Source: Thermoplasmata archaeon
GTDB taxonomy: Archaea > Thermoplasmatota > SW-10-69-26 > JACQPN01 > JAJPHT01
Direction: 5' to 3'
Assembly (NCBI GenBank): GCA_034667685.1
Contig: JAXDQU010000063.1
Location: 1-15,670, forward strand
DNA length: 15,670 nucleotides
A model generated the notes under the pieces. It worked only from the letters and a program-made list of their open reading frames with translations. It made no database searches and was not told the DNA's origin. Of the stretch, positions 70 to 15,670 are shown in pieces. How positions within the stretch are numbered: position 1 is the first letter of the stretch; every line of letters begins with the position of its first letter. The translations under genes were made by a program, and so were the position numbers.

Positions 70-88
70 GTTCCGACACGCCCCGTCA

Positions 89-112: not shown

Positions 113-146
113 GCTCAAGTCCTTGACGCAAGAGTGTAGGGTCGAG

Positions 147-359: not shown

Positions 360-440
360 GGGAACCGAGGGTTCGTCGTTCATCCGCCTCGTTGATCCGG
401 AACCTTCAAGCCCATCAAGCGCCCAGACTGGAGCGAGCTT

Positions 441-830: not shown

Positions 831-871
831 CTTCTTGCACCCTCGCGCGCCTGGAGCCGCCGAGGCTTCCC

Positions 872-1174
872 ATGCGCACCATCCTCGTTCTTTGCGCGCT
901 CGCCACGCTCTCGCTGCCCGCGCTCGCCGACAACGGCCACTGCTGGACCACCTCGCCCGCGGACGACACGTGGACGGGGGCCGACGGCAGCACGTACTAC
1001 GTGGACCGCACGGACTGCAACGGCGCGCCCGTCTCGGTCACCGGCGGCTGCACGTTCTCGTTCTGGATCTACGAGGAGGCCAACGGGCTCCCCGGCCAGC
1101 AGCGCGGCGATCCGGACCACAACGACGTGGCCGCCTGCACCGACGGCACGCGCGCCGACACCGACGTCTTCTGA
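872..1174 (+). CDS. Small secreted protein, 100 aa, with Sec signal peptide and 4 Cys in the mature part
   Basis: MRTILVLCALATLSLPALA signal with an AxA site; mature region contains WIYEEANGLPGQQRGD; this is the real C-terminal part of track ORF 392..1174. Confidence 0.8.
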   Translation: MRTILVLCALATLSLPALADNGHCWTTSPADDTWTGADGSTYYVDRTDCNGAPVSVTGGCTFSFWIYEEANGLPGQQRGDPDHNDVAACTDGTRADTDVF

Positions 1175-1954: not shown

Positions 1955-2118
1955 GCGCGGCCCAAACGGAGGCGGCTATTTGGCCCCTTCCCCCGAGCGG
2001 CGCGCGCCCCGGACGCGGGTCGGCTTCCGCTGGAGCGATCGGGGAGGGAGGCGCGAAAAGGGAGCGCCGCCCTGAACGTATCCGGTCCAGGCGTGGCGCC
2101 CGGCTCGGAAAGCTGTTT

Positions 2119-2814
2119 CTATCCTGCCACGACGCGCACGTGGAGCTTCGCCACGCCCGGGAGCGCGGCCTCCAGCGCGTCGCCCGGCTTGCATGCCGCG
2201 ACGCCCGCGGGCGTGCCCGTGGCGATCACGTCGCCCGGCTCCAGCGTCATGAAGCGCGAGACGTGGCGGAGAACCTTCGGCACGCCGTGGATCATCTCGC
2301 GCGTCGCGCTCTTCTGGCGCACCTCGCCGTTGACGCGCAGCTCGAGCGTCATCGCGTCCCACGCGGGCGCCTGCGCGGCGGGCACGACCTCGCTGATCGG
2401 GCCGAAGGTGTCCATGCCCTTCGCGAGCGTCCAGGGCGTGCCGCTCTTCTTGGCCTCCGCCTGCAGGTCGCGCGCGGTCATGTCGAGGAAGGCCGCGTAG
2501 CCCAGCACGGCGCCCATCGCCTCGGCGTCGCTCGTGGCGCGGCGCAGCGTCTTCCCGATCACGACCGCGAGCTCCGTCTCCCAGTGGACGTTCGCGACGC
2601 CCGGCGGGATCACGATCTCGCCCCCGTCGTGCACCAGACACGAGGCGGGCTTCAGGAAGATGACCGGGTCCTCCGGGGGGCGCTGGTCCCCGGCCGCGCC
2701 TGAGCCCATCGGACCGGCCATCTCCTTGCGGTGGTCCTCGTAGTTCTTGGCGACGGCGACGATCTTCCCGGCGGGGACCGGGCGCTGGCCGCGGATGCGC
2801 AGCTCGAAGGACAT
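2119..2814 (-). CDS. Fumarylacetoacetate (FAH) hydrolase family protein
   Basis: KIVAVAKNY.DH..EM, PVIFLKP, HWETELAVVIGK, DMTARDLQ, WTLAKGMDTFGP, TLEPGDVIATGTPAGV; ATG 2814 chosen as start. Confidence 0.93.
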   Translation of the reverse strand: MSFELRIRGQRPVPAGKIVAVAKNYEDHRKEMAGPMGSGAAGDQRPPEDPVIFLKPASCLVHDGGEIVIPPGVANVHWETELAVVIGKTLRRATSDAEAMGAVLGYAAFLDMTARDLQAEAKKSGTPWTLAKGMDTFGPISEVVPAAQAPAWDAMTLELRVNGEVRQKSATREMIHGVPKVLRHVSRFMTLEPGDVIATGTPAGVAACKPGDALEAALPGVAKLHVRVVAG

Positions 2815-2851
2815 GCTGCGGCCCAGCCGGCGCGCCACGAAAAGGATTTCT

Positions 2852-2942
2852 CCGGCTGGCGTTCCTTTCCCAACACCGAGAATCCCGGAATCCGCGGATG
2901 ACTCGGATGCGCGGTGTCAGGAAGGGAGCGTCACGAAGCCGG
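2852..2942. repeat. Long imperfect hairpin in the divergent FAH/MBL intergenic region
   Basis: 2857-2870 pairs with 2920-2933 (14 bp including 3 G-T); ACACCG/CGGTGT; CCGGC/GCCGG; central ATCCGCGGAT palindrome. Confidence 0.6.
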
Positions 2943-2989
2943 CAAGGCGGACCAGAAAGGCTGATCCCCCCGCAGGCCGGAGCAGGAGC

Positions 2990-3724
2990 GTGGACCTGCA
3001 CGTCCTGGGCAACAGCAGCCGCTACCTGGCGCCCCTGGGCGCGGGCACGAGCTACCTGCTCACGGAGGGCGACGCGCGCCTGCTGCTCGATTGCGGCAAC
3101 GGCACGCACCTGCGCCTCGCCCAGGTCCTCGAAGGCCGGCCGCTCGCGGGCGTCGTCGTGAGCCACTTCCACCTGGACAACGTCGCGGACCTGCTGCCCG
3201 TCGCGTTCTCGCTCTCACCCGGCACGCCGCTCGTGATCCCGCAGGGCGCGGAGGCGCGGCTCGCGGACATCCTGCGCGCCTACAGCATGGACCGCACGTG
3301 GATCCAGAACGCGCGCCTCGAAGGCGTCGGGCGCAAGTCCGCGCTGGAGATCGGCCCGTTCAAGCTATCATTCTGCAACGTGGGCCACGGCTGCCCCGCG
3401 GTGGGCGTGCGCGTCGAGACCACGGGCGGCGCGCTGGTCTACCTCGCGGACACCGGCCCGCGGCCGTGGTTCGCCGACTTCGCGCGGGGCGCGAGCGCGC
3501 TCCTTTGCCACACGATGCTCATGGACCGCGACGAGGGCGAGGGGCGCAAGACCAACCTCAGCGCGGGCGACGCGGGCCGGCTGGCGCGCAAGGCCGGCGT
3601 GGGCAAGCTCCTCCTCTCGCACGTCCCCTTCTACGGCAACGCCGAGGAGTCGCACGCCGAGGCCAAGGCGGCGTCGGGCGCGGAGGTCACGGTGCTGCGC
3701 GAGGGGCAGACGGTAGCGGTCTGA
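2990..3724 (+). CDS. Metallo-beta-lactamase-fold hydrolase (RNase Z/BN-like) with substituted catalytic motifs
   Basis: LHVLG, TSYLL, LLLDCGNG, SHFHLDN (canonical HxHxDH), VGHG, LVYLADT, LLLSH; GTG 2990 start inferred from where the fold begins. Confidence 0.85.
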   Translation: MDLHVLGNSSRYLAPLGAGTSYLLTEGDARLLLDCGNGTHLRLAQVLEGRPLAGVVVSHFHLDNVADLLPVAFSLSPGTPLVIPQGAEARLADILRAYSMDRTWIQNARLEGVGRKSALEIGPFKLSFCNVGHGCPAVGVRVETTGGALVYLADTGPRPWFADFARGASALLCHTMLMDRDEGEGRKTNLSAGDAGRLARKAGVGKLLLSHVPFYGNAEESHAEAKAASGAEVTVLREGQTVAV

Positions 3725-5012
3725 GCGCGCCGCGCCGCAGCACGAGGAACATCGCGACGTGGAGCGGCAGCTCCTGCTCGCCCGGGACGATGCTGCGCCC
3801 CACGCCCTTCAGGTTCACGTCGGCCGGCTTCGAGACAACGACGCTCACCGGCTCGTCGGAGAGCGCGACCGCGTCCCGCAGCGGGTCGAAGCGCTCGAAC
3901 TCGTCGATGCCCATCGGCGTCACGCGCAGGCCCGTCTTGCCGTGGAGCGAGCCGGGCAGGCGGATGAGACGCTTGATGTCGGCGGTGACGGGCTCGTCGG
4001 TCTCGCCCTCTGTTTTCACTTTGGCCTTCTCAATCAAGAAATCGACAACGGCCTGTCGTTGAAGTGCAGGAGGCAAGAAGATTCGTTCCGATAAGATTTG
4101 GTCATGGCGCGACCGGTTCACGACGTTGAATGGATCGTTCAACTGGATGGCATCCGACTTGCCTGTTCTCAGGAGCTTGATCTTCTCCGGCGTCGCCCAG
4201 TCGAGTAGGCGTGCCGCTGTCGCTTCGCCGATCCCCTTGTGCGACTGTAGTTCCATCATCGCAGCCGGCCTGGGCATTTGGGCGAGCTCATCGAGGTAAT
4301 CTATGATACCCCGCGTCAGCCGCCCCATCCAACCTGGAGCGGTGGAGGGCGGCACATACTTCTCCTTCGAGAGACGCCCGAAGCCGTCTCGGGTCACACT
4401 TCTCTCCACCGCCCAATGCTCGAACAGCCATTCGGCGACTTGCTCGTTCGGGCTCAGATAGTCCACAATCTCGCGGCGCTCGGAGCTCTCCAGCTTCCAG
4501 ACGCGGGGATCAGTGACGTGGAAGTGGTAGCCGCGGCCGCCGGAGAACACAATGTGGACGTGCTCGGGATCGAAGCCGAAGTCTCCCAGCAGGAACTTGC
4601 GCAGGAGCTTCTTGGCCTGAGCGTGCACTTCGCGCAGTTGCTCTTCATAGCTGAGCTTGTCCGCGTTGGGCAGGTGGTCCGCGTCGAGGTCGAAGATGAG
4701 GTCGGCGCCGCGCCAGGTCTTCTCCGCCATCGTGTGGGCGTCGGGTTTGTCGTAGTAGGCCGTACTGTAGTAGCAATGCCACGGGCCCCGCGCCAGGTGC
4801 GCGCGGAAGTCCGCAGCGCTGCGGATTCCGATGTGGCGAAAGAAGGGAGTGCGCTCGGGTGCGGGCCGCGGCGCCGGGATGAAGCCGAACTCACGGCGCA
4901 TGAAGCGACTCGGCAAGGGGGGAGGGCTCTCTGCATAGTAGCGCGCAAGCTCCGCCGTGACCCACGCGAGCGTCGCGTCGATCTGCTCCTGGGGAGGCGG
5001 GCCGCCGGCCAC
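3687..5012 (-). CDS. priS: DNA primase catalytic (small) subunit PriS
   Basis: REFGF, YYSTAYY, WRGADLIFDLDADHL (DxD), FSGGRGYHFHV, ERREIVDYL, DEPVTADIKRLIRLPGSLHGKTG; the 3' end overlaps the convergent MBL gene by 38 nt. Confidence 0.95.
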   Translation of the reverse strand: MAGGPPPQEQIDATLAWVTAELARYYAESPPPLPSRFMRREFGFIPAPRPAPERTPFFRHIGIRSAADFRAHLARGPWHCYYSTAYYDKPDAHTMAEKTWRGADLIFDLDADHLPNADKLSYEEQLREVHAQAKKLLRKFLLGDFGFDPEHVHIVFSGGRGYHFHVTDPRVWKLESSERREIVDYLSPNEQVAEWLFEHWAVERSVTRDGFGRLSKEKYVPPSTAPGWMGRLTRGIIDYLDELAQMPRPAAMMELQSHKGIGEATAARLLDWATPEKIKLLRTGKSDAIQLNDPFNVVNRSRHDQILSERIFLPPALQRQAVVDFLIEKAKVKTEGETDEPVTADIKRLIRLPGSLHGKTGLRVTPMGIDEFERFDPLRDAVALSDEPVSVVVSKPADVNLKGVGRSIVPGEQELPLHVAMFLVLRRGALRPLPSAPRAAP

Positions 5013-5113
5013 GGGCGCCCAGACACGCGCCGGGTCAAGAGCCTATCCGGGGGTGGGTGTCGATGCGCCGTCGCCTCCGCAGCCTTCAAGTGGCCCCAAT
5101 GGGTCGCCGGGGC

Positions 5114-5335
5114 GTGGGCGTCCTGGACGCGCTGCGCGAGAACGTGGCCACGCTCGTCCGGGGCGTCACGCTCCTCGTGGGCGGCCTCGCGCTGATCCTC
5201 GTGGGCACGCTCATCGGGCTGGGCAGCTCGAAGCTCGCCATGATGACCGCCGGCACGATCGCGTTCGCGGGGCTCTGCATCGCGTTCATGGGCTTCTTCC
5301 TCTACCTCCTGCCGCCGCTGCTTCCGCCCAAGTAG
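5114..5335 (+). CDS. Small two-helix membrane protein (alternative start ATG 5099)
   Basis: Two hydrophobic stretches; GC3 bias; AGCCTTCAAG TATA-like element ends 23 nt before GTG 5114. Confidence 0.7.
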   Translation: MGVLDALRENVATLVRGVTLLVGGLALILVGTLIGLGSSKLAMMTAGTIAFAGLCIAFMGFFLYLLPPLLPPK

Positions 5336-5377
5336 CGGCACACAAGCCTATGTAGGAGCCGCCGCCTCGCGCCCGAC

Positions 5378-6322
5378 GTGGACGCCCCCCGCGTCGTCGA
5401 CATCTTCGCCGGCTGCGGCGGCTTCGGCTTCGGCTTCGCCGAGCACGGCTTCCGCATCGGGCACGCGGTCGAGGCGTTCCGCACCTCGCTGGAGACGTAC
5501 GTCGCCAACGTGCCGGTGGACGAGCCGCGCCTGGGCGACGTGCGCGCGCAGCCCTACGCCAAGTTCGGGCGGCCTGATGTGCTGATCGGCGGCCCGCCTT
5601 GCGAGGCGTTCACCGTCGCCAACGCGGACCGGCGCAAGAACCCGCTCGACCGGCTCTACACCGATCCCGTCGGCTCGCTGACGCTCCAGTACGCGAAGGT
5701 CGTCAAGGAGCTCCAGCCGCGCGTCTTCGTCATGGAGAACGTGCCGCCCATCATGGATGGCCCGCTGGAGGCCGAGCTTCGCATGGTCTTCGCGCGCCAG
5801 GGCTATCCCGACATCCACTTCAACCGCCTGCAGGCCGAGGACTTCGGCACGCCGAGCCACCGCGATCGCGTGTTCATCAGCAACGTCGTGATCTCGCCCC
5901 CGAAGAGCGCGCGGCGCGTCACGGTCGAGGAGGCGATCGCCGACCTCCAGAGCCTCGACGTGGAGGTCCCGAACCACGAGGAGATCCCGATGCGCGGCAA
6001 GCGCGGGCAGCGCATGAAGGAGATGTCCGAGGGGGACAGCCTGTACCAGTACCGCGCCGCGGACGGGCGCATGCACGGCGCGTACACGCGGCTGCGCGCG
6101 AACGAATTGGCGCCCACGGTGAAGGGCCTGGGCCGCTTCATCCACCCCGTCGAGGATCGCCTGCTCACGGCGCGCGAGCACGCCCGCCTCATGGGCTACC
6201 CGGACGACTTCGTCTTCCACGGCTCGAAGAACGAGCAGCTCAACATGATCGGGGAATCGGTGCCGCCGCCGCTCTCGAAGGCGATCGCGGGCGAAGTGCG
6301 GGCCGCGCTCGATTCGTCGTGA
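5378..6322 (+). CDS. dcm: C5 cytosine-specific DNA methyltransferase (archaeal type, no adjacent restriction enzyme)
   Basis: Motif I DIFAGCGG, IV GGPPCEAF, VI VMENV, VIII PSHRDRVF, IX RLLTAREHARLMGYPDDF, X IGESVPP. Confidence 0.93.
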   Translation: MDAPRVVDIFAGCGGFGFGFAEHGFRIGHAVEAFRTSLETYVANVPVDEPRLGDVRAQPYAKFGRPDVLIGGPPCEAFTVANADRRKNPLDRLYTDPVGSLTLQYAKVVKELQPRVFVMENVPPIMDGPLEAELRMVFARQGYPDIHFNRLQAEDFGTPSHRDRVFISNVVISPPKSARRVTVEEAIADLQSLDVEVPNHEEIPMRGKRGQRMKEMSEGDSLYQYRAADGRMHGAYTRLRANELAPTVKGLGRFIHPVEDRLLTAREHARLMGYPDDFVFHGSKNEQLNMIGESVPPPLSKAIAGEVRAALDSS

Positions 6323-6326
6323 TCCG

Positions 6327-6439
6327 GCGCTCTGCGCGCTCCGCATGCGGAGCCGCGGTGCTCGCGGAGGCCGCGGAGTTTTCCGGACACCGCGTTCCCC
6401 GCGCTCTCCGCGTCTCCGCATGCGGAGCGCGCAGAGCGC
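6327..6439. repeat. 113-bp palindromic intergenic element (REP/MITE-like) between convergent genes; may also act as a terminator
   Basis: Perfect 26-bp inverted arms 6327-6352 and 6414-6439; inner 9-nt-periodic CGCGGWG x3 facing CHCCGCG x3. Confidence 0.85.
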
Positions 6440-7131
6440 TACTTGCGCCCGATCCGCACGATGATCAACGCGAGCGCGAAGAGCAACCCGCTCCCGAGGA
6501 ACAGGATGTAGACGCCGCCCGTCGCGGTGTTGCCGAGGATGCGCTGCGCCACGAAGATGAGCAGGCCCAGCGCGGCGACGCCGACCGCGAGGCCCCAGAC
6601 GCGCTGCTGGCCCAGGCCGCGCAGCCCGGCGACGACCGCGAGCGCCGCCTGACGTCCGGCCCCGCGCTTGTCGAGGTCGCGCGCGAGCTTCGCGCTCTCG
6701 ACCTCCAGGTGCACGAGCACGACGCCCGCGAGCGCCAGGAGCGAGCCGCCGGTGCCCAGGGGGCCCACGTCGGTGCCGGTGATGCTGCCGGGGTACGGGC
6801 CGATCCAGTGGACCGTGGCCTCCTCCAGGTGGAAGCCGATGATGAAGCCGATGACGCCCCAGAGCGCCCACGTGCGGTGGCTGGAGCGGCCGAAGGACGC
6901 ATAGCCGCCCAGCCAGAAGCCCGCGAGGAAGAGGATCGGCGCGCGCACGTCGGGGATCAGCTTGTAGGGGATCGGGCCGCTGAACTTGCTGAAGATGAAC
7001 GAGCCGTACGCGGTGAACGTGACGCCGAGCCCCACGAGGCTCGCGTAGAGCAGCCGGCGCGAGACGCTGCCCGGGGGCAGGGCGCGCAGCGCGTCGAGCT
7101 TGTCGTCGACGTAGCCGATGCCCGTGGCTAT
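6439..7131 (-). CDS. Multi-pass membrane protein (about 230 aa), last gene of the MoxR operon; probable ATA start
   Basis: About 6 hydrophobic segments; no in-frame ATG in this region; ATA overlaps the upstream TAG (ATAG) and lies 5 nt after GGGGGTG; this is the real part of track ORF 6439..8364. Confidence 0.75.
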   Translation of the reverse strand: MATGIGYVDDKLDALRALPPGSVSRRLLYASLVGLGVTFTAYGSFIFSKFSGPIPYKLIPDVRAPILFLAGFWLGGYASFGRSSHRTWALWGVIGFIIGFHLEEATVHWIGPYPGSITGTDVGPLGTGGSLLALAGVVLVHLEVESAKLARDLDKRGAGRQAALAVVAGLRGLGQQRVWGLAVGVAALGLLIFVAQRILGNTATGGVYILFLGSGLLFALALIIVRIGRK

Positions 7132-8435
7132 CGGAGCACCCCCTTGGCGAGAAGCGCCTGCAGCGGCGCGCGGCTCGGGTGATATCGCAGGACCGTGATG
7201 CCGCGGCGTTCCAGCCCCTTGAGCTGCGCCTTCTCCTCGACGGCGACGATGCGCGCCGCGACGCTGCCGTCGTCCGCGACGATGGGCGTGACGCACACGA
7301 CGGGCGCGGGGCGGCGTCCGGTGCTCGCGAGGGCGCGGGCGGAGATGAGCGCGCGGGCGAGGGCCGGGTCGCGGCCCGCGAGGGTGAACGCGAAGATCAG
7401 CGGCTTCTCCCGCGCGAGGAAGCCCTTCGTCGCCTCGACGGCCTTGGCGATGGGCTCGCCCTCCTCGCCGGGCTGCGCGGTCGCGAGCAGGGCCGCCATG
7501 CGCCGCTCCTGCGTCTCGCCGCCGTCCGCGTAGAGCAGGCGCGTCTGCCCCGCGCCGAAGAGCGTGAAGCCGACGCGGTGCCCCTGGTCGAGGTAGTGGC
7601 CCGCGACCGAGAGCGCGCCGCTGGCCAGCTCGTCGAAGAGGCTCGCGTCGCTGGTGCCGCCCACCGTGTAGGGCGAGGCGTCGACGAAGAGCCAGACGAC
7701 CTTCTTGCCCTCGACCTCGTAGTCGTTGACGATGAGCTTCAGCTCGCCGCGGCTCTCGCGCGCCGTCGCCTTCCAGTTGACGGACTTGAGCGGATCGCCC
7801 TTGGCGTACGGGCGAAGCTCGCGGAAGTCGTTGGTCTGGATGCCGCGGCTCGCCTTGTCGCCGCCGGGCAGCATGGTGCGGCCCCACGCGGCGCTGGTGC
7901 GGATGCGGGGCGCGGGCGGGGTGCGCGGGTGGACGGTGATATCCTCGGTGGCGAGCGGCTCGGTGACGGGCGCGCTCTGGAGGAAGAGCGGGTCGTAGGT
8001 CGTCACGCGCAGCGCGCCGACGGGGTGCGTGCCGCGGCGCGGGGGGCGCAGGCGATAGCGCAGCGCGGCGACCTGGCCGGGCGCGACCCACGCGACGCCG
8101 AAGTTGGCGCCCGTCTGCAGCTCGAACGCGTCGGGCACCTTGTCGTGGAGCGAGAGCGCGACCGGCTCCTTGCCCTGGTGGCGCGCCTCGACCGAGACGT
8201 CGAGCGGGTCGCCCGCGCGAAGCTCCGTGCGGGAGAGCGCGCGCTTCGCGCTCAGGCCGGGGACGGCGTGCCCGCGCGCCCAGAGGACCAGGCCGAGCAG
8301 GAAGAGCGCGCACAGGAGGTACGGGTAGTCGCCGAACGCGAGGCCCGCCACGAGAAGCGCGCACCCTGCGGTCGCCATGGCGCGCCCGAACGGCGCGAGA
8401 CCCTTGACGTCTCCCCCGGTGCGCTCCTTCGCCAT
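7128..8435 (-). CDS. DUF58 / vWA-like MoxR-associated membrane-anchored protein
   Basis: Two N-terminal TM helices, Ig-like segment, RRG...G, DFRELRPYAKGDPLKSVNWKATAR, LFVDAS MIDAS-like start. Confidence 0.9.
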   Translation of the reverse strand: MAKERTGGDVKGLAPFGRAMATAGCALLVAGLAFGDYPYLLCALFLLGLVLWARGHAVPGLSAKRALSRTELRAGDPLDVSVEARHQGKEPVALSLHDKVPDAFELQTGANFGVAWVAPGQVAALRYRLRPPRRGTHPVGALRVTTYDPLFLQSAPVTEPLATEDITVHPRTPPAPRIRTSAAWGRTMLPGGDKASRGIQTNDFRELRPYAKGDPLKSVNWKATARESRGELKLIVNDYEVEGKKVVWLFVDASPYTVGGTSDASLFDELASGALSVAGHYLDQGHRVGFTLFGAGQTRLLYADGGETQERRMAALLATAQPGEEGEPIAKAVEATKGFLAREKPLIFAFTLAGRDPALARALISARALASTGRRPAPVVCVTPIVADDGSVAARIVAVEEKAQLKGLERRGITVLRYHPSRAPLQALLAKGVLR

Positions 8436-8439
8436 CGTG

Positions 8440-9450
8440 TCACATCATGCGGCGCGGCTTGGCGGCCGGCACGGGGACGGTCGCGAGCGATTCGCGCACG
8501 GCGCGCTCGGGCGAGGCGCCGGCCAGCATGTCCTCGACCTTCAGCAGCGTGCGGTGGGCGAGCGCGTCGACGGCGAAGGTCTTCACGTCGTCGGGCACCA
8601 CGAAGTCGCGCCCGCGCAGGAGCGCCATCGCCTTCGATAGCTTGAACAGGGCCAGCGAGCCGCGGGGGCTTGGGCCGACGCGGACCTGCGGGTGGGCGCG
8701 GACGGCGCGCACGATGCGGCTGATGTAGAGCATCACGTCGCTGCTCACGATGACGCCCTGCTCCACGCGCTGGCGGAGCCCGTCGAACTGCGCGAGGTCC
8801 ATGACCGGCTTGTAGTCCCCGGTCGGATCGTCCTTCGCCCAGCCGGCGCGGCGCTGGAGGATCGCGGCCTCCTCCTCGTCCGTCGCGGGGTAGCCCATCG
8901 AGAGGCGGATGAGGAAGCGGTCCATCTGCGCCTCGGGGAGCGGGTACGTGCCCTCCTGCTCGACGGGGTTCTGGGTGGCGAGCACGAAGAACGGCTTGGG
9001 GAGCTTGTGCGTCTCGCCGTCGATCGTCACCTGGCGCTCCTCCATCGCTTCGAGGAGCGCGCTCTGCGTCTTGGGCGGGGCGCGGTTGATCTCGTCCGCG
9101 AGCAGGACGTTCGTGAAGATCGGGCCCTTGTAGAGCTGGAAGGCGCGCGTCTCCTGGTTCCAGATCTTGGTGCCCAGGATGTCGGAGGGGAGGATGTCGG
9201 GCGTGAACTGCACGCGCTTGAAGTCGGCGTTCACGCTGCGCGCGAACGTCTTGACCAGGAGCGTCTTGCCCAGGCCGGGGAAGTCCTCCATGAGCACGTG
9301 GCCGCCCGCGAGCGCGCCCGCGGTGAGCTTCTCGACGACGATGTCCTTGCCGACGATGGAGCGCCCGACGCCGCGGATGAGCGCCTGGAGGGACGCGACC
9401 TCGTCCTTGTAGACTGCATGGCTGGCTTCGAGGTAGTCGTCGGTCTTCAT
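8440..9450 (-). CDS. moxR: MoxR-family AAA+ ATPase, 336 aa
   Basis: Walker A EDFPGLGKT, RVQFTPDILPSDILG, Walker B LLADEINRAPPKTQSALLEAM, ATQNPVEQEGTYPLPEAQMDRF; ATGA overlap at 9447-9450. Confidence 0.95.
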   Translation of the reverse strand: MKTDDYLEASHAVYKDEVASLQALIRGVGRSIVGKDIVVEKLTAGALAGGHVLMEDFPGLGKTLLVKTFARSVNADFKRVQFTPDILPSDILGTKIWNQETRAFQLYKGPIFTNVLLADEINRAPPKTQSALLEAMEERQVTIDGETHKLPKPFFVLATQNPVEQEGTYPLPEAQMDRFLIRLSMGYPATDEEEAAILQRRAGWAKDDPTGDYKPVMDLAQFDGLRQRVEQGVIVSSDVMLYISRIVRAVRAHPQVRVGPSPRGSLALFKLSKAMALLRGRDFVVPDDVKTFAVDALAHRTLLKVEDMLAGASPERAVRESLATVPVPAAKPRRMM

Positions 9451-10307
9451 GAGGGGTTCTCCACGGGTCTGCGAAGCGTGAGGATGCGCTCGATCTCGTC
9501 GAGCGCGGCGCGCACGTCGGCGTCGCGGTTCGTGCCGGCGCGCGCGAAGCTGGAGAGGATCTGGGCCTCCAGCGCTTTGATATCGGCCTCCGGAAGCTCG
9601 GCGGCCTGCGCGGCCGACCGGACGAAGGCGAGGAAGGGGGCGGCGTCGCCGCGCGCGCGGAAGGCGTCGAGCACGTCCTCCGCGCGCTGGCGCTTGGGGT
9701 CCGCGACCTTCAGGATGCGCCTGGCGTGGCGCTTGTGGTCGCTGGGCGCGAAGAGCCACGCCTCGCCCGCGCGGGGGCCGCCCACCCAGAGGCGCAGCGC
9801 GCCGGCGAAGCCCAGCGCGATGAGCGTCCACGTGATCAGCTCGCCCTGACTCAGGTAGCGCGCGTAGAAGAGCTGGAAGGCGACGACGAGGCCCGCGTAG
9901 GCGATGGCGGCCAGCGTGAGCAGCACGCGCCGGTAGGGGAAGGCGCTGCGCTCCTTCTTCTCGCGAAGCTCGCGGCGCGACCAGGCCGCGGCGAAGTCGA
10001 GCACGACGAACCCGCCGTAGAGACCGACCACGACGCGCGCGCCCGAGAGGCCCACGAGCAGCGCGGCCAGCCCGAAGAAGACCCACGAGAGGACGCGCGG
10101 GAACCAGGGCATGACGGCGCGGCCCCGGTTGATGGCGTAGCTGATGCCGCCCGCGCGCGCCGCGAAGCCCAAGGCCAAGGGCGGCGTCAGCGCGAAGATC
10201 GGGATCGCGCCGCCCACCGTCGTCACGGTGGTGGAGAGCAGGAACGCGAGCGCGCTGAACGCCGCGCCCAGGACGTTGAGCACGCGCCCCGCGCGCGGTG
10301 ATAGCAC
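9447..10307 (-). CDS. Multi-pass membrane protein with C-terminal helical cytoplasmic domain (start GTG 10307 or CTG 10319)
   Basis: About 6 hydrophobic segments; stop overlaps the moxR ATG; codon bias. Confidence 0.8.
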   Translation of the reverse strand: MLSPRAGRVLNVLGAAFSALAFLLSTTVTTVGGAIPIFALTPPLALGFAARAGGISYAINRGRAVMPWFPRVLSWVFFGLAALLVGLSGARVVVGLYGGFVVLDFAAAWSRRELREKKERSAFPYRRVLLTLAAIAYAGLVVAFQLFYARYLSQGELITWTLIALGFAGALRLWVGGPRAGEAWLFAPSDHKRHARRILKVADPKRQRAEDVLDAFRARGDAAPFLAFVRSAAQAAELPEADIKALEAQILSSFARAGTNRDADVRAALDEIERILTLRRPVENPS

Positions 10308-10322
10308 CGGCTCGAGCAGCCC

Positions 10323-11222
10323 TCAGACCTCCGGAAGCGCGGGCGGCGCGCGGGGTCCGGCCTGCGGGCCGACGGGCGGCAGGTCCGCGCGCTCGAGCAC
10401 GAGGAGCTGCTGCATGAGCGCGAGGTAGAGGCGGCGATCTGCCTCGCGCTCGCCGTAGGCCACGAGCTCGTAGACGCGCGCGATCTCCAGCAGGGCGCGC
10501 GCGGAGGTCTGGTCCGCGCCCGCGCGCAGCCGCTCGGCCAATTCGCGCGCGGTGCTGCTCTCGGCCTCGGGGCCGAGCATGCCGATGGCGAAGCTGCGGA
10601 ACTCGCCGAAGAGGCGGGCGATCTCCTCCTCGTAGCGCACGACGGAGACCGCGAGCGTCGCGTAGCCGGTCAGGCTGTCGAGGCGCGCCTCGGCGTCGAG
10701 CGTCAGCTCGCCCACGGGCTGCCCCGCGAGGTCGAAGGCGACGGTGCCGTCGTTGCCGGCCACGCCCTCGCCCACGAGCGCGCGGGCGCCGTCGCGCGGG
10801 GCGCTGGAGAGGCGCACGGCCGCGCCGGCCGCCGGGCCCGCGGAGGTCTGCACCGACACGACGAGCGTCACGCCCTCGCGCTCGCCGATCACCGAGGGGA
10901 AGCCCTCGGGCACGGCGGGCAGGTCCACGAGCACGGAGAGCCCGCCGCTCACGCGCGGGGCCGCAGCGGGGGCGCGCGGCGCGGCGCGGAGGGGCGCGGC
11001 CACGGGCGCGACCGCGACGGCGGCGAGGGGCTCCTCGTCCTTCTCCCGGAGCAGGGCGAAGACGCCCGCGACGTAGACGAGCGAGGCGAGGACCCACACC
11101 GGCGCGAGCACGATGGCCGCGTCGGGGTTCGTGAGCAGCGCGCCCACGGCGAGGCCCACGAGGGCGCCGCCTCCGATCCAGAGGGCCGTCTTGCCGGCGG
11201 GCTTCAGCTTCAGCGAGATCAC
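10323..11222 (-). CDS. Membrane-anchored protein: two TM helices, Ig-like beta region, C-terminal DUF4129-like domain (299 aa)
   Basis: GTGA overlap with the upstream stop and GGAGGA 8 nt upstream; C-terminal STARELAERL...ALLEIARVYELVAYG resembles DUF4129; this is the real part of track ORF 10323..14171. Confidence 0.78.
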   Translation of the reverse strand: MISLKLKPAGKTALWIGGGALVGLAVGALLTNPDAAIVLAPVWVLASLVYVAGVFALLREKDEEPLAAVAVAPVAAPLRAAPRAPAAAPRVSGGLSVLVDLPAVPEGFPSVIGEREGVTLVVSVQTSAGPAAGAAVRLSSAPRDGARALVGEGVAGNDGTVAFDLAGQPVGELTLDAEARLDSLTGYATLAVSVVRYEEEIARLFGEFRSFAIGMLGPEAESSTARELAERLRAGADQTSARALLEIARVYELVAYGEREADRRLYLALMQQLLVLERADLPPVGPQAGPRAPPALPEV

Positions 11223-11899
11223 TTGAGGAGTCCTCCGCAGGGGATGATGGAATAGAACTGGGTCGCGTAGCTCGCGCCGAGGAAGGGCTGCTGCGCGTCG
11301 ATCGTGAGCGTGTACGCACCCGCGGGCGCCTGCTTGTGGCCGAGCACCTCGTAGGAGTTGTACGTCCACTTGTCGTCCTCGCCCGGGCCGTTCACGGCGT
11401 TCACGTCGCGCGTCGTGTCGTTCGCGTACGCGCCCCACGTCACGCCGCCGGGCGCCGCGACCGTCGCGCTCATGTTCGAGCCCTTCCAGCCGGTCACGTT
11501 GACGAAGCCGCCCACGACGTAGGTGCCGTTGGGCGGCGTGAACGTCGCGGTCCGGTGGTAGTTGGGGCTCTGCCCCAGGAGCGTGTTCGCGTTGGAGGTG
11601 GAGAAGCTGTCGTTGAACGTCGCGTCCTTGATCGGCGCCACGATCGGCGGCGGGCACCCGCCCGGCGGGATCTGCCCCTTGTATTTCGAAGCGTCGAAGT
11701 CCGGAGGCGGCTTGAAGTCCGGCGGGGGCTTGAAGTCGGACGGGGGCACGAAGTCGCTCGGGATCGTGGAGGGCGTGGGGATCCACGGCGGCGGCTTGAC
11801 GTCCTTCACGTACGAGTTGTTGAGCGCGTTGAACGTCGGCAGCAGGAGGACCATGCCCATGGCTGCGCACACGCCCAGCTTCAGCATGCGGTCGTCCAC
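11219..11899 (-). CDS. Secreted or N-anchored protein with a Pro-rich hexapeptide-repeat stalk and beta-rich domain; first gene of the MoxR operon
   Basis: GGAGG 9 nt before GTG; N-terminal hydrophobic helix; PSDFVP-PSDFKP-PPDFKP-PPDFDA; Thr/Asn/Gly-rich extracellular composition. Confidence 0.82.
   Translation of the reverse strand: MDDRMLKLGVCAAMGMVLLLPTFNALNNSYVKDVKPPPWIPTPSTIPSDFVPPSDFKPPPDFKPPPDFDASKYKGQIPPGGCPPPIVAPIKDATFNDSFSTSNANTLLGQSPNYHRTATFTPPNGTYVVGGFVNVTGWKGSNMSATVAAPGGVTWGAYANDTTRDVNAVNGPGEDDKWTYNSYEVLGHKQAPAGAYTLTIDAQQPFLGASYATQFYSIIPCGGLLK
11696..11761 (-). repeat. Coding tandem repeat, 18-nt period, about 4 copies (P-[SP]-D-F-x-P)
   Basis: GAAGTC on the + strand at 11696, 11714, 11732 and 11750. 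Confidence 0.85.
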
Positions 11900-11944
11900 G
11901 TGGCGGTGCCTCCTGCGCGCACGCGCTCCACGGCGCGGGTCCGG

Positions 11945-11951
11945 TTATAAA
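11945..11951 (-). promoter_or_regulatory. Archaeal TATA box (TTTATAA) for the MoxR operon; possibly shared with the divergent cinA-like gene
   Basis: AACCTTTATAACC on the - strand, an AT island about 45 nt upstream of GTG 11899, leaving room for a short SD-containing leader. Confidence 0.7.
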
Positions 11952-11993
11952 GGTTGAGGATAAGCTGTTGGGCGGTCCCTCCGTTGCGCCGCC

Positions 11994-12782
11994 GTGCGCT
12001 GCGCGGTCATCCTGGTGGGCGACGAGCTTCTCGCGGGCCATACGCGTGACGCCAACGCCCATTTTCTGGCGCAGCGGCTCCACGCGCTCGGGCATCGCCT
12101 GCGCCGCATCGTGGTCGTGCCCGACGAGGCGCACGCGCTCGCCGCGGAGATCGACCACACGATGCCGCAGGCGGACGTCGTCTTCATCAGCGGCGGGCTG
12201 GGCCCGACGCACGACGACCGGACGACCGAGGCGCTGGCGCACCACTTCGGGCGCCGCCTGGTGCTCCACGAGCCTTCGTGGCACAAGCTCCTGGAACGCT
12301 ACGACCGGCGCGGCAACATCCCGGAGCACACCAAGCTCGCGGCGCGCAAGATGGTGACGATCCCCGAGGGGGCGGAGGCGCTGGAGAACCCGGTGGGCGC
12401 CGCGACGGGCTACGTGCTGCGCGAAGGAGGATGCGCGCTCGCGGTGCTGCCGGGCGTGCCCGCGGAGCTGATGGCGATCTTCGAGCAGGGCATCGTGGGG
12501 CGCCTCGTGCCGCAGGCGGCGCACGTCGGTCTCGTGGAGGCGGAGGTCGAGATGGCGGAGGCCTCCTTCGCCGCGGCGCTGGGCGCGGTGGCGGAGCGCT
12601 TCGGCGACGTGGAGATCGGCAGCTACCCGCACTTCGGGGAGCGGCGCGTGACGCTGCGGTTCAAGGGGGACGAGGCGCGCGCCGAGGAGGCGCTGCGGAC
12701 GTTCCTGCGCGAGTGCCCCGACGCCAAGGCGCGGCTGCTGGGCGCGCCGAAGACCAGCGCGGGGCGCGCGGTCGAGGTCTGA
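11994..12782 (+). CDS. cinA: CinA-like molybdopterin-binding-fold protein (COG1058-type pyrophosphatase), lacking the PncC domain
   Basis: VGDELLAG..RDAN..FL, VVVPDE, SGGLGPTHDDRT, LENPVGAA.G, LPGVPAEL, IGSYP. Confidence 0.88.
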   Translation: MRCAVILVGDELLAGHTRDANAHFLAQRLHALGHRLRRIVVVPDEAHALAAEIDHTMPQADVVFISGGLGPTHDDRTTEALAHHFGRRLVLHEPSWHKLLERYDRRGNIPEHTKLAARKMVTIPEGAEALENPVGAATGYVLREGGCALAVLPGVPAELMAIFEQGIVGRLVPQAAHVGLVEAEVEMAEASFAAALGAVAERFGDVEIGSYPHFGERRVTLRFKGDEARAEEALRTFLRECPDAKARLLGAPKTSAGRAVEV

Positions 12783-12824
12783 TCCTGCAACAACGGTTTT
12801 CAACCGGCCACCGGCTCGCGGCGC

Positions 12825-14123
12825 GTGCGCCTCGCCATCGCCCTCGCGCTCCTGCTCGCGGCCGGCTGCCTCGCCCCGGCGGCCACGCGGCCCACCTCGA
12901 CCGGCGCGACGCTGCCCTACGACCCGATGGGCCAGGCGCACGACCACTCGGACGTGGCGCTGCACGACTTCTCGTGGCAGATGGCGCAGACCGACCACCA
13001 GCCGCTCGCGGGGAGCGCCACGCACGGCAGCGGCGCGCACGCGCTCGACGTGCGCAACGGCTGGCTCTTCGCGGCGGTGTACGGCGGCACGGCGGACGAT
13101 GAGGGCGGCTTCTTCGTCCTCAACCTGAGCGACCCCGCGCACCCCCGGCAGGTCGGGCGCTATCAATTTCCGGGGCCGCTCGCGGGCGACCGCAGCATGG
13201 AGGCGACCGACGACGCGGACTTCGTGGCGCTGGGCACCGAGGCGGTCGACTGCGCGGGGCACGTCAACCCCGCGGGGCCCGGCCTCTACCTGATCGACGT
13301 GCGCGACAAGGCCAACCCCAGGCTCGCGGACTACATGCCCAACAGCGGCGTGCACAGCGTCACGGTCCACCGGATCCACGGCGAGGACTACGTCTTCGGC
13401 CTGATGCCCAACGACAACGTCGTCCACATCGTACGCTCGCCCGTCCCGCGCCTGGAGGCCGTGGGGCAGGTCAGCATCGGACATGATAGCATCGTCGTCG
13501 ACGATCCGATCCTCCAGAAGCCCCTCCTGTACGCCGCGAACGGGGGCGCGGGCTTCGAGATCAGCGACGTCTCCGATCCGGGGCACCCGAAGCTCCTCGC
13601 GGCGTGGAACATCCCCGACCGCAACGGCAAGTACTACATCCACACCGGCGCGGTCACGTCCGTCGACGGGCGGCGCATCGCGGTCGTCACGAGCGAGGAC
13701 TGGCAGGACTACCCGAGCGCGCTCTGGGTCCTCGACGCGACGGACTTCGGCCTCATCCAGACGATCAGCCATTGGAGCGCGCCGGGCGACCACGCCGCGG
13801 ACGGCCTGCGCTACAGCATGCACAACCCGCGCTTCCTGGGGACGACGCTCATCCTCGCCTACTACCACGGCGGCGTCTGGGCGCTCGACATGGGCAGCGC
13901 CCAGAAGCTTGCTCATCCCCAGGTGATCGGACAGTTCAGCCCGTCCACGAGCAACGGCTGGCGGCCGCAGCCCACCGACACGCACGCGGTCTCGGACACG
14001 GAGTGCGGCAAGTTCAACCTCGCCGACGCGCCGATGGTCTTCGACGTCGAGACCGGCCCGCAGGGCTACGTCTACGTCGCGGACCTGCCCACCGGCCTCT
14101 ACACGGTGAAGCCGACTTGGTGA
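12825..14123 (+). CDS. LVIVD-repeat beta-propeller lipoprotein
   Basis: Lipobox LLAAGC; repeats GFFVLNLSDPAHP, GLYLIDVRDKANP, GFEISDVSDPGHP, LWVLDATD, YYHGGVWALD, YVYVADLPTGLY. Confidence 0.85.
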   Translation: MRLAIALALLLAAGCLAPAATRPTSTGATLPYDPMGQAHDHSDVALHDFSWQMAQTDHQPLAGSATHGSGAHALDVRNGWLFAAVYGGTADDEGGFFVLNLSDPAHPRQVGRYQFPGPLAGDRSMEATDDADFVALGTEAVDCAGHVNPAGPGLYLIDVRDKANPRLADYMPNSGVHSVTVHRIHGEDYVFGLMPNDNVVHIVRSPVPRLEAVGQVSIGHDSIVVDDPILQKPLLYAANGGAGFEISDVSDPGHPKLLAAWNIPDRNGKYYIHTGAVTSVDGRRIAVVTSEDWQDYPSALWVLDATDFGLIQTISHWSAPGDHAADGLRYSMHNPRFLGTTLILAYYHGGVWALDMGSAQKLAHPQVIGQFSPSTSNGWRPQPTDTHAVSDTECGKFNLADAPMVFDVETGPQGYVYVADLPTGLYTVKPTW

Positions 14124-14128
14124 GGGGG

Positions 14129-14176
14129 CGAAATGGCCTTGCGTCCCACGCGCCTTGGGCGCAGCGGGCACACCCC
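14129..14176 (+). promoter_or_regulatory. Conserved upstream element, copy 1 (before peptide P1)
   Basis: CGAAAT-N3-CTTG-N5-CACGC-N-CCTT-N8-CGGGCACA-N-CCC-ATG, matching 14693-14739. Confidence 0.65.
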
Positions 14177-14398
14177 ATGAAAGCGACCCTCCTCGTCCTC
14201 GCCTCGCTCCTCGCGCTCACGGCCGTCTCGACGGCCGCCCCCGGCGCGAGCGCCATCGGCTACTGCACGTTCGCCACGGGCGACTGCACGGGCTACTTCG
14301 TCTGCGTCGGCCCCCAGTACGGCGACGACGGCCAGATCGTGGGCTGCAGCGGCGCGAACGTCCCCATCCCGCCCTGCGCCTGCCAGCCCTACGACTGA
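14177..14398 (+). CDS. Secreted six-cysteine mini-protein P1 (73 aa; 26-aa signal plus 47-aa mature)
   Basis: MKATLLVLASLLALTAVSTAAPGASA | IGYCTFATGDCTGYFVC...C...CAC; paralogous to three neighbours; C-terminal part of track ORF 13604..14398. Confidence 0.9.
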   Translation: MKATLLVLASLLALTAVSTAAPGASAIGYCTFATGDCTGYFVCVGPQYGDDGQIVGCSGANVPIPPCACQPYD

Positions 14399-14411
14399 GG
14401 AGAGGGGCGCC

Positions 14412-14651
14412 ATGAAGCTCCCCACCCTCGTCCTCGCCGCGTGCCTCGTCGCCGGTGGCCTCGTGGCCGTCGCGGCGCCCGCCACCGCCATGATGCAGTG
14501 GTGCACGTCCGCCACCGGCAACTGCCAGGGCTACGTCGTCTGCCTGGGCGTGACGTACCAGAACGGGCACGTGCAGCGCTGCGACCACGGCGTCCCGGAC
14601 AACGTCATCCCGGGCTGCGACCCCGCCTCGTGCGACGCGATCCTGCCGTAG
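14412..14651 (+). CDS. Secreted six-cysteine mini-protein P2 (79 aa)
   Basis: GAGGAGAGGGG SD; signal ending APATA; WCTSATGNCQGYVVC...RCDHGV...GCDPASC. Confidence 0.9.
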   Translation: MKLPTLVLAACLVAGGLVAVAAPATAMMQWCTSATGNCQGYVVCLGVTYQNGHVQRCDHGVPDNVIPGCDPASCDAILP

Positions 14652-14692
14652 GCCTGCGCCTGCATCCGCCCGGGTGCGGCATGGGCGAGCGC

Positions 14693-14739
14693 CGAAATCC
14701 ACTTGTGGCGCACGCTCCTTCCGTGCCCGGGCACAACCC
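14693..14739 (+). promoter_or_regulatory. Conserved upstream element, copy 2 (before peptide P3)
   Basis: CGAAAT-N3-CTTG-N5-CACGC-N-CCTT-N7-CGGGCACA-N-CCC-ATG. Confidence 0.65.
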
Positions 14740-14964
14740 ATGAAAGCGACCCTTCTCGTGATCGTCTCCCTCGCCGCGCTCACCTTCGTGAGCGTAGCCG
14801 CGCCCGGCGCCTCCGCCGTGGGCTACTGCACGACCTTCACCGGCTCGTGCGACGGCTACATCGTCTGCATCGGCACGCAGACCTCCTACAGCCACCTGAC
14901 CCACTGCCAGACCGGCGTCCGCGAGCCCCCCTGCACGTGCGACCCGTGGCCGCAGCCCCTCTGA
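14740..14964 (+). CDS. Secreted six-cysteine mini-protein P3 (74 aa)
   Basis: MKATLLVIVSLAALTFVSVAAPGASA | VGYCTTFTGSCDGYIVC...HC...PPCTC. Confidence 0.9.
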   Translation: MKATLLVIVSLAALTFVSVAAPGASAVGYCTTFTGSCDGYIVCIGTQTSYSHLTHCQTGVREPPCTCDPWPQPL

Positions 14965-14973
14965 GGCGCTTCG

Positions 14974-15186
14974 ATGCGCGCCCTTCTCCTGAGCCTCGTC
15001 CTCGTGGCGGGCGTCGCGGCCTTCGCGCTCCCCGGCGCGTCGGCCTTCAGCGACTGCACGTCTGTCACGGGCAACTGCGACGGCTGGTTCGTCTGCCTCA
15101 ACGCGCAGCGCGACGCCAACGGCCAGCTCACGTGCGACGTGGGCGTGCAGAACCCGCCCCCGTGCGCGTGCCTGCCGCAGAACTGA
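14974..15186 (+). CDS. Secreted six-cysteine mini-protein P4 (70 aa)
   Basis: MRALLLSLVLVAGVAAFALPGASA | FSDCTSVTGNCDGWFVC...TCDVGV...PPCAC; GAGG upstream. Confidence 0.9.
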   Translation: MRALLLSLVLVAGVAAFALPGASAFSDCTSVTGNCDGWFVCLNAQRDANGQLTCDVGVQNPPPCACLPQN

Positions 15187-15216
15187 ATCTTTCCGCCCGG
15201 CCCGCCATCGGGCTTC

Positions 15217-15609
15217 GTGGACCTTCCGGACGGCCTCGTCCTCCTTCTTCTCGCCCTTCTCGCGATCGGGTGGCTCATCGCGCTCGTCACGCTGCGCAGC
15301 CTGCGCGAGGCGCGCGCCGCGAAGCGCAGCCAGAGCGCGAAGTACGGCAACCTCACGGAGCAGTTCGCGCCGTGGATGGAGGGCTGGCCCTTCGACCCGC
15401 AGGGCTTCCGCTTCCTGGGCAAGCCGGTGGACGGCGTGCAGTTCGAGGCGGACGCCGTGTACCTCGTCGAGATCAAGAGCGCCGGCAGCCGCCTCTCCCC
15501 CGCGCAGCAGGCCGTCCGCGACGCCGTGCGCCGGGGGCGCGTCGGGTGGGTCGAGTTCCGCGTCGACGAAGGGAAAGCGGTGGTCGTGGAGCGCCCGTGG
15601 GAGCGGTGA
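15217..15609 (+). CDS. Membrane-anchored PD-(D/E)xK nuclease related to archaeal Holliday junction resolvase (Endonuc_Holl-like)
   Basis: N-terminal TM helix; G..TEQFAP, FRFLGKPVDGVQF, YLVEIKS, LSPAQ..VRDAV..GRVGW. Confidence 0.85.
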   Translation: MDLPDGLVLLLLALLAIGWLIALVTLRSLREARAAKRSQSAKYGNLTEQFAPWMEGWPFDPQGFRFLGKPVDGVQFEADAVYLVEIKSAGSRLSPAQQAVRDAVRRGRVGWVEFRVDEGKAVVVERPWER

Positions 15610-15626
15610 GGTGCGGCCGACCGGAA

Positions 15627-15658
15627 CACGAAGTCACGAAGCCACGAAGAGCACGAAG
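15627..15658. repeat. Four tandem CACGAAG heptamers (periods 8, 8, 9 nt); probably the left arm of an element cut by the window end
   Basis: CACGAAG at 15627, 15635, 15643 and 15652. Confidence 0.8.
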
Positions 15659-15670
15659 AAACTGAAACTT

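Follow-up and report, generated by a model that had tools for sequence, protein, structure and literature searches.

Four consecutive genes near the 3′ end of a 15,670-nucleotide (nt) stretch of DNA from a Thermoplasmata archaeon (contig JAXDQU010000063.1, positions 1 to 15,670; hereafter the window) encode members of a small cysteine-rich protein family that is rare, new, unnamed and narrowly distributed. It is very probable that these genes, P1 to P4, represent two bicistronic units whose products are precursors exported by the general secretory (Sec) pathway as members of such a secreted-miniprotein family. Tandem genes for secreted, disulfide-rich miniproteins are a known kind of arrangement, found here in an archaeon. 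The four genes, with lengths in amino acids (aa), are as follows.
14177–14398, + strand: P1 precursor gene, 73 aa; signal peptide 14177–14254, mature part (47 aa) 14255–14395, stop codon 14396–14398
14412–14651, + strand: P2 precursor gene, 79 aa; signal peptide 14412–14489, mature part (53 aa) 14490–14648
14740–14964, + strand: P3 precursor gene, 74 aa; signal peptide 14740–14817, mature part (48 aa) 14818–14961
14974–15186, + strand: P4 precursor gene, 70 aa; signal peptide 14974–15045, mature part (46 aa) 15046–15183

Each precursor begins with MK or MR and a hydrophobic stretch, and a leader of about 26 aa ends in A-x-A (ASA or ATA) directly before the mature part; none of the four leaders carries a twin-arginine. 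Signal cleavage was judged from the n/h/c layout together with the −3/−1 rule, read from the sequence. The layout is that of a Sec/signal peptidase I substrate, with K/R in the n-region, approximately 15–20 hydrophobic residues in the h-region, and small residues at −3 and −1. The mature parts each contain exactly six cysteines and share the core C-T-x2-T-G-x-C-x-G-[YW]-x-V-C in all four cases. Their cysteine spacings are 6/5/13/9/1 (P1), 6/5/12/11/4 (P2), 6/5/12/8/1 (P3) and 6/5/12/9/1 (P4), and the mature pairs are 40–51% identical. Between P1 and P3, 21 of 26 signal peptide residues are identical, compared with 20 of 45 in the mature part. The original prediction, made from the letters of the window, had proposed four consecutive genes of 70–79 aa with a Sec-type leader and mature peptides of 46–53 aa with six cysteines after ASA or ATA. 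Its coordinates and lengths agree with ours to the residue, and the spacings and the shared core that it listed were recovered unchanged.

Codon usage sets these four reading frames apart. GC content at third codon positions (GC3) is 0.95–0.99 inside P1–P4 (0.97–0.99 in P1), while most open reading frames (ORFs) overlapping them have a GC3 of 0.53–0.75; one antisense ORF with a GC3 of 0.94 is the usual shadow frame. P1 and P3 are, as had been claimed, hidden inside longer mechanical ORFs (13604–14398 and 14674–14964, respectively). The in-frame 5′ extensions of the two genes have a GC3 of 0.51 and 0.59, far below that of the genes themselves, and the ATG codons at 14177 and 14740 are therefore the likely starts. 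A profile built from the four sequences recovers each of P1–P4 at E-values of 1e-33 to 5e-38 and also finds relatives in other genomes, and an 84-nt stretch is repeated four times across the array at 65–75% identity.

The window stretch is also present in soil metagenome runs, identical throughout in run X2 and as near-identical or variant pieces in runs X3–X5. Nine runs were listed for it, none of them from RNA, which says nothing about expression. Codon changes were counted among the differences listed for these runs. At least 24 distinct changes were found across P1–P4, 14 synonymous and 10 non-synonymous; all of the listed differences are in-frame, none falls at a cysteine and none leads to a stop. 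Two single-nucleotide indels in run X3 (14342 and 14478), both at low depth and in a single contig, are the only contrary sign among the strain variants and would break P1 or P2 if real. They would suit the view that the array consists of fortuitous ORFs, or of duplicates undergoing decay, in a genome of high GC content. That view is extremely improbable given the restriction of high GC3 to the P1–P4 frames, the excess of synonymous over non-synonymous changes without a stop among the differences listed, and relatives with invariant cysteines in seven genomes and 31 metagenomic clusters. GC3, the profile matches, the 84-nt repeats and the strain variants together indicate more than chance ORFs, and P1–P4 are real genes.

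The upstream regions of P1 and P3 resemble each other and differ in kind from the short spacers before P2 and P4. The elements found are the following.
14129–14136, + strand: A/T-containing box CGAAATGG, a possible TATA-like promoter element; distance to the P1 start 48 nt
14166–14176, + strand: leader motif GGGCACACCCC, immediately upstream of the P1 ATG
14399–14411, + strand: 13-nt spacer GAGGAGAGGGGCGCC, with a GGAG/GAGG Shine-Dalgarno-like site before P2
14693–14699, + strand: A/T box CGAAATC, 47 nt before the P3 start
14729–14739, + strand: leader motif GGGCACAACCC, immediately upstream of the P3 ATG

An alignment of nine leader regions shows similar A/T boxes, which is consistent with the box before P1 being a candidate TATA-like promoter element. 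The sequence GGGCACA(C/A)CCC abuts the ATG of both P1 and P3, and the 56 nt spanning the motif and the gene start are 86% identical between the two. P4 starts 9 nt after the P3 stop, with GAGG 9–12 nt before its ATG, and the GGAG/GAGG sites of P2 and P4 fit the 3′ end of the 16S rRNA of this genome, GGATCACCTCCT. Since P2 and P4 have Shine-Dalgarno-like sites and P1 and P3 share the box and the leader motif, the array would consist of two bicistronic units, P1–P2 and P3–P4. A sigma-70 promoter scan returned no sites, the model being one that does not apply to an archaeon. The only Rfam match on 13900–15670 (snaR-A, 27 bits, below its gathering score of 98) was taken as chance.

The leader motif extends well beyond the array. 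For this and later comparisons, the genome holding the window (as contig C63) is termed G000 (3.48 Mb in 124 contigs, 99% complete, 70% GC); G002 and G003 are congeners, and the other genomes are labelled G001, G004, G005, G018, G020 and G312. In the form GGCACA[AC]?CC(C)(C)ATG, the motif occurs ten times in G000, compared with once for a reversed control. Nine of the ten occurrences precede small secreted cysteine-rich ORFs, which look like members of several unrelated families; P1, P3 and a further family member on contig C34 are among them. All four occurrences in G003 likewise stand before secreted cysteine-rich genes, and the reversed control gave none. The positions outside the window are as follows.
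G000, leader motif before cysteine-rich secreted genes: C2:32908, C16:3424, C17:19180, C25:27930, C34:37057, C39:38928, C78:53274
G003, leader motif: C15:220591, C31:20836, C33:124830, C40:184497

In the remaining genomes searched, none of the matches in G002 (two, with three for the control) or G005 (one) lies before a cysteine-rich secreted gene, the single match in G004 precedes a secreted protein without cysteines, and G001 has no match. An nhmmer model of the leader region adds little, re-finding its own nine seeds together with one weak extra match (E 0.071). From this distribution, at least two species appear to have a cis element in common, which may be an initiator, a short 5′ untranslated region or a regulator site.

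The family itself is rare. Searching with a profile of the mature peptides, a check suggested along with the original prediction, found relatives in 7 of 401 genomes of the phylum, with 5 of 21 genomes of the class containing the family, and a search of 1.84 billion representatives with a 21-sequence profile of the mature domain gave 31 proteins at E ≤1e-3 (5 at ≤1e-10). These 31 relatives are 69–213 aa long, and the domain begins at residue 21–33 in every one of them. Ten relatives were looked up; each forms a metagenomic cluster with no other member, and nine lack a name while one is a “hypothetical protein”, in keeping with the expectation that genes of this size escape annotation. Tandem arrays are the usual arrangement, with three plus three genes at the corresponding locus of G003 and three more on its contig C8, four in G005 and three in G312. 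A word-index protein search returned only P1–P4 and P0005, a protein encoded on another contig and 84% identical to P1. In G003, an ortholog-like gene of P3 encodes a mature part that is 59–61% identical. Further members in G000 are located as follows.
C34:36824–37057: family member
C101:515–760: family member

The cysteine framework is conserved across the homologs. In an alignment of 42 sequences, five cysteine columns are invariant and every member has an even number of cysteines: six in 37 members, eight in four and ten in one. The loops vary from 5 to 15 residues (C1–C2), 4 to 8 (C2–C3) and 10 to 14 (C3–C4), and aromatic and glycine positions are conserved (G-[YW]-C, G-[YW]-x-V-C, Y-G). 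Phylogenetically, P1–P4 group together within a 12-row clade (support 98/92) in a tree with few columns and many unresolved forks. P1 is sister to P0005 (99/91) and P2 to P0032 (97/82), and P0032, the closest relative of P2, also shares its cysteine spacing of 6/5/12/11/4. Because the nearest relatives of P1 and P2 lie outside the array, the paralog types appear to be older than the strains carrying them.

Database comparisons provided no name for the family, as had been anticipated: Pfam, NCBIfam, PDB sequences and Foldseek all lack a match. No member of the 42 scored above a Pfam cut-off, and at E ≤0.1 NCBIfam returned nothing beyond four unrelated chance matches, with no TIGR04449 halocin_C8_dom. 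PADLOC and PHROGs gave no match at E ≤0.01 for the six proteins examined (P1–P4 and both neighbours). Three weak candidates were rejected. The best match of a PDB sequence profile, to carboxypeptidase B (E 0.099), was taken as chance. Pfam Myticin-prepro (PF10690) scored 16.5 bits with P1 and 17.2 bits with P3, short of its 28.5-bit cut-off, and did not match P2 or P4; it covers mostly the signal peptide, and one of the 42 members matches at E 0.077. The best ESM Atlas feature score (0.84), to unnamed clusters labelled Acidobacteriota, lies below a meaningful level. Neither the family nor a cysteine-rich secretome in Thermoplasmatota was found described in the literature, supplements not being covered.

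Between genes that are conserved, the array forms an accessory insert whose copy number varies. Its surroundings in the window are as follows.
12825–14123, + strand: LVIVD-repeat beta-propeller protein, secreted or lipoprotein-like, 432 aa (Pfam LVIVD, E 1.5e-6; GC3 0.96)
15217–15609, + strand: Endonuc_Holl family protein, 130 aa, hydrophobic N-terminus (Pfam PF10107, E 8e-17)
15621–15670, no strand assigned: dispersed repeat of CACGAAG-like heptads at the contig end, 60 nt after the Endonuc_Holl gene

The Endonuc_Holl gene is the conserved anchor of the locus. It is present in all five genomes of the family searched, with orthologs 74% (G003, C15:219434–219826) and 66% (G002, C117:2563–2955) identical. 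The LVIVD and Endonuc_Holl genes, which in G000 flank the four peptide genes, are separated by just 59 nt in G002, with no peptide genes. G003 lacks the LVIVD gene and has a CinA-like gene followed by three peptide genes, the Endonuc_Holl gene and three more peptide genes; here a P4-like gene follows the P3-like gene and precedes the Endonuc_Holl ortholog. The LVIVD gene is probably not part of the peptide system. Other loci of the family have different neighbours, namely gpsA and an ATP-binding cassette (ABC) ATPase gene (G000 C34 and G003 C8), FtsZ-like and QueC genes (G018 and G020), and an LVIVD-like gene and a GNAT gene (G005). ABC genes occur near the G000 C34/G003 C8, G000 C101 and G020 loci, and none lies near the array in the window.

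In one X3 contig, 68 nt located after the P4 stop and before the Endonuc_Holl start are swapped for 70 others (15186–15255), which is strain-level variation at the 3′ border of the array. Farther downstream, 16-mers of the contig-end repeat recur within C81 and at the end of contig C75, with a partial occurrence at the end of C18, and the repeat has a depth of 95.8 in run X2, compared with about 5 over the array. Such a dispersed repeat probably explains the break in the assembly. The array may continue beyond the contig end, given the three additional family genes after the Endonuc_Holl gene in G003.

Structure prediction is consistent with a small beta-rich scaffold. With the 42-sequence alignment, the AlphaFold2 model of the P3 mature peptide reached a mean predicted local distance difference test (pLDDT) score of 78.9 and a predicted template modelling (pTM) score of 0.49. 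The model is all-beta, with strands at residues 2–5, 14–23, 26–29 and 32–35 and no helix. A first run with 21 sequences (pLDDT 50.2) was too poor to use. Foldseek found no match for the model in PDB or BFVD, which may partly reflect its small size. The structural check that had been proposed thus gave a usable all-beta model without a fold relative, and no defensin fold was seen in this comparison. The six cysteines most likely form three disulfides. A predicted complex of the P3 and P4 mature peptides scored 0.03 without controls, a value that speaks neither for nor against a two-peptide complex.

The array belongs to a much larger cysteine-rich secretome. We carried out a census of G000 for ORFs of 45–130 aa that satisfy a home-made signal-peptide rule and have a GC3 above 0.85, counting cysteines after residue 22; the counts are approximate. 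Among the resulting 567 ORFs, 60 have two cysteines, 9 have three, 63 have four, 5 have five, 34 have six, none has seven, 14 have eight, 5 have ten, 3 have twelve and 2 have fourteen. The cysteine number is even in 121 of the 126 ORFs with at least four, and the cysteine-rich ORFs include 12 same-strand tandem arrays of two to five genes. Examples of these arrays in G000 are listed here.
C89:8745–10007, C16:2397–3424, C40:1622–2412, C71:10191–11326, C106:22277–23118, C10:14228–15133: cysteine-rich arrays

One such group, found on C16, C40, C71, C122 and other contigs and recognized by the pattern C..G.vCV...DPC, resembles the P1–P4 family in its Sec leader, even cysteine number, tandem arrays, narrow distribution and spacing of the first three cysteines. 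The leader motif is also common to the family and to some of these sets (C16 and C17). The C-terminal halves differ, with DPC....C in this group and G-V..P-C-x-C-x-P in the family. An hhalign comparison of the two gave a local P of 5.4e-4 (probability 30%, 22 columns), compared with 0.08–0.61 for three control families; this is a weak link, and common descent is at most a possibility. A link obtained by single-linkage clustering of 19 cysteine-rich proteins was set aside, as it may be driven by signal-peptide residues.

Two further features of these small secreted proteins were observed. The window encodes, at 872–1174 (+), a secreted-looking protein of 100 aa with four cysteines after its leader (GC3 0.96), which forms a four-member family with C29:2567–2866 and two tandem copies at C89:33786–34559. 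In addition, LP, LA or PL stands at the C-terminus of many cysteine-rich ORFs and family members (for example AILP, VLP, YLP and VPLA). LP ends 11 of the 126 cysteine-rich ORFs but is missing from the twelve most frequent endings of 372 low-cysteine controls, each of which occurs at least six times; these endings may represent a C-terminal motif.

The host is an archaeon, as had been proposed. G000 contains a full-length archaeal small-subunit ribosomal RNA (1498 bits), and the window itself encodes GINS51 and the primase small subunit, PriS. G000 also encodes a haem-copper oxidase (450.8 bits), which makes an oxic life style plausible, so that extracellular disulfides could form. The other neighbour genes in the window are listed here with these two.
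1178–1954, − strand: GINS51-like
2122–2838, − strand: FAA hydrolase
2747–3721, + strand: metallo-beta-lactamase fold protein
3690–5012, − strand: primase PriS
5378–6319, + strand: C-5 cytosine DNA methylase
7131–8435, − strand: DUF58
11994–12779, + strand: CinA-like MoCF_biosynth protein

Eukaryotic defensins, knottins and conotoxins, as well as the small secreted cysteine-rich effectors of fungi and oomycetes, combine a signal peptide, a fixed cysteine framework, variable loops and tandem paralogs. P1–P4 are alike in this layout, in the better conservation of the leader than of the mature part (P1/P3) and in belonging to a large repertoire. They differ in showing no homology, in their archaeal host, in their anionic charge and in their spacing, C-x6-C-x5-C-x12/13-C-x8–11-C-x1–4-C; the usual knottin spacing differs from the long C3–C4 gap (10–14) of the family. 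The analogy to defensins, knottins and conotoxins drawn in the original prediction holds for the leader, the fixed cysteine framework and the tandem array. As a guide to mechanism it is weakened, because the peptides are anionic and have no helix, no fold match and no immunity or export genes.

A bacterial parallel exists in the actifensins and laterosporulins (class IId, Actinomyces/Brevibacillus). The actifensin report describes a leader followed by a mature peptide of 37–50 aa with six conserved cysteines, a mean identity of 52% and up to seven copies per operon; the leader is of the GA type, the operons carry conserved ABC-transporter and accessory genes (afnB–I), and the peptides are described as defensin-like, of the cysteine-stabilized (CS) alpha-beta kind (PMC6989792). 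P1–P4 are alike in having six cysteines, as do 37 of the 42 family members, and in their leader, tandem genes and degenerate sequence (40–51% identity). They differ in their Sec leader, in the lack of conserved ABC or accessory neighbours, in their anionic charge and in a model without helix; the dedicated leader and conserved ABC operon of the actifensin type are absent from the family. Pfam, NCBIfam and PDB scans found no sequence similarity of the family to actifensins or laterosporulins.

Among archaea, the only well-known example of an extracellular peptide rich in disulfides is, to our knowledge, halocin C8. According to a recent preprint, it is cut from a 283-aa precursor exported by the twin-arginine translocation (Tat) pathway, the N-terminal part of the precursor is the immunity protein, and the gene is flanked by a regulator and ABC transporters (bioRxiv 10.64898/2026.07.27.741052). 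P1–P4 resemble halocin C8 and the microhalocins as small, cysteine-rich, secreted archaeal peptides, whereas their precursors are Sec-type and 70–79 aa long, their neighbours are LVIVD and Endonuc_Holl proteins, and TIGR04449 matches none of the 42 members. Neither actifensins nor halocin C8 are related to the family by sequence or by defining features.

Our best explanation, which as a whole we rate slightly below an even chance, runs as follows. Precursors of 70–79 aa would be exported by Sec, and signal peptidase would release anionic miniproteins of 46–53 aa. In these, a small all-beta core with variable loops and a Pro-rich tail would be held together by the six cysteines, most likely through three disulfides. 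The array is accessory and copy-number-variable, one of many secreted arrays with even cysteine numbers, some of them sharing the leader motif. Released into oxic soil, the stable scaffolds would diffuse and bind to targets of other organisms: they would be toxic through a surface target, or would block enzymes that competitors secrete. Binding would be specific and take place through the variable loops rather than by cationic membrane disruption, and four old, distinct paralog types would have different targets.

Antagonistic or inhibitory use of P1–P4 is a tentative proposal, possible rather than probable, and draws on the accessory, fast-turnover, multi-paralog pattern that is also seen in actifensin operons. 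Fast turnover, many old paralog types, a rigid scaffold with indel-rich loops and a large co-marked repertoire fit diffusible binders. The anionic charge, the lack of a helix and the lack of accessory genes argue against both a membrane mechanism of the defensin or actifensin type and a self-toxic bacteriocin with immunity. A broader proposal, which we consider doubtful, is that G000 and at least one congener run more than 100 secreted disulfide-locked miniproteins as a commonly regulated arsenal. It would be an effector- or venom-like secretome, marked by GGCACA(A/C)CC..ATG and organized in fast-turnover arrays, with P1–P4 aimed at neighbouring microbes. Such secretomes are so far known to us only from eukaryotes and a few bacteria.

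Several observations weigh against antagonistic use of disulfide-locked peptides. First, P1–P4 mature peptides have a net charge of −2 to −4 and an isoelectric point of 4.05–5.2; 41 of the 42 members are net negative and none is positive, unlike most antimicrobial peptides. Most defensin-like peptides are cationic, and the anionic charge makes a cationic, defensin-like membrane mechanism unlikely. Second, no immunity, export, transporter or maturation gene is conserved beside the family at the six loci compared. Third, the two- or three-domain forms (P0006, P0024 and P0030), joined by Pro-rich linkers, suit binders or inhibitors better than toxins. Fourth, the ratio of non-synonymous to synonymous rates (dN/dS) gave no clear sign of diversifying selection, and the strain-level codon changes look mildly purifying. 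Paralog comparisons yielded 1.25–1.9 for mature parts and 0.5–0.8 for leaders, values made unreliable by about 30 synonymous sites and a GC3 near 1, and the P3/G003 ortholog pair showed the reverse (mature 0.82, leader 1.9). The paralog values were consequently rejected as evidence of positive selection. Finally, no VKOR and no DsbB was found in G000, and the sole Thioredoxin_4/DsbA-like match (29.3 bits, C45:12090–12692) has a CPWC motif and lacks a signal peptide.

The first three of these observations are also what would be expected if the peptides were extracellular binders without an antagonistic role, that is, lectin-like, matrix or adhesion miniproteins for polysaccharide, mineral or the producer's own surface. 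The conserved aromatic and glycine positions would suit this as well. Such a role is nonetheless unlikely: the sequences contain no anchor, no transmembrane segment and no PGF-like tail, no fusion of the domain to an enzyme or large surface protein occurs (none of the 31 relatives exceeds 213 aa), Pfam gave no carbohydrate-binding module match, and presence or absence among congeners argues against a core envelope role.

The lack of a recognized extracytoplasmic oxidation system would fit a different possibility, in which the cysteines would be ligands for Zn, Cu or Fe in metal-binding miniproteins. This could account for the C-terminal C-x-C/C-x2-C pair, and a 2026 survey of archaeal proteomes reads several small cysteine-rich dark domains as metal binders (PMC13607799). 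We consider it very unlikely in view of Sec export into an oxic setting, the lack of paired CxxC knuckles or His ligands in sequences with cysteine gaps of 5–15, 4–8 and 10–14, and the failure to reach a zinc-finger cut-off (zf-TAZ at E 0.024 in 2 of 42 members).

P1–P4 could also be pheromone or quorum peptides sensed by a membrane receptor of the producer. In favour of this, they are stable secreted products of small size that are specific to the lineage, different types persist next to one another, and the leader motif that they share hints at joint control. None of the family loci compared has a conserved sensor or regulator, and approximately 126 genes in one genome lie far above known signalling systems, so that a signalling role appears quite improbable.

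Very little is understood about the way archaea other than haloarchaea and Sulfolobales deal with neighbouring organisms, and few secreted archaeal peptides are known. A rare unnamed family in variable arrays, approximately 126 ORFs that nearly all have even cysteine numbers, and a shared leader motif offer a concrete entry point. If the function proves mundane, as in matrix or adhesion, the value of the finding shrinks to that of a new domain family. The length of the peptides puts their synthesis and folding within reach, and solving the structure and mapping the disulfides would probably establish a new miniprotein scaffold. The leader motif, in turn, offers a way to approach regulation in this uncultured lineage of Thermoplasmata.

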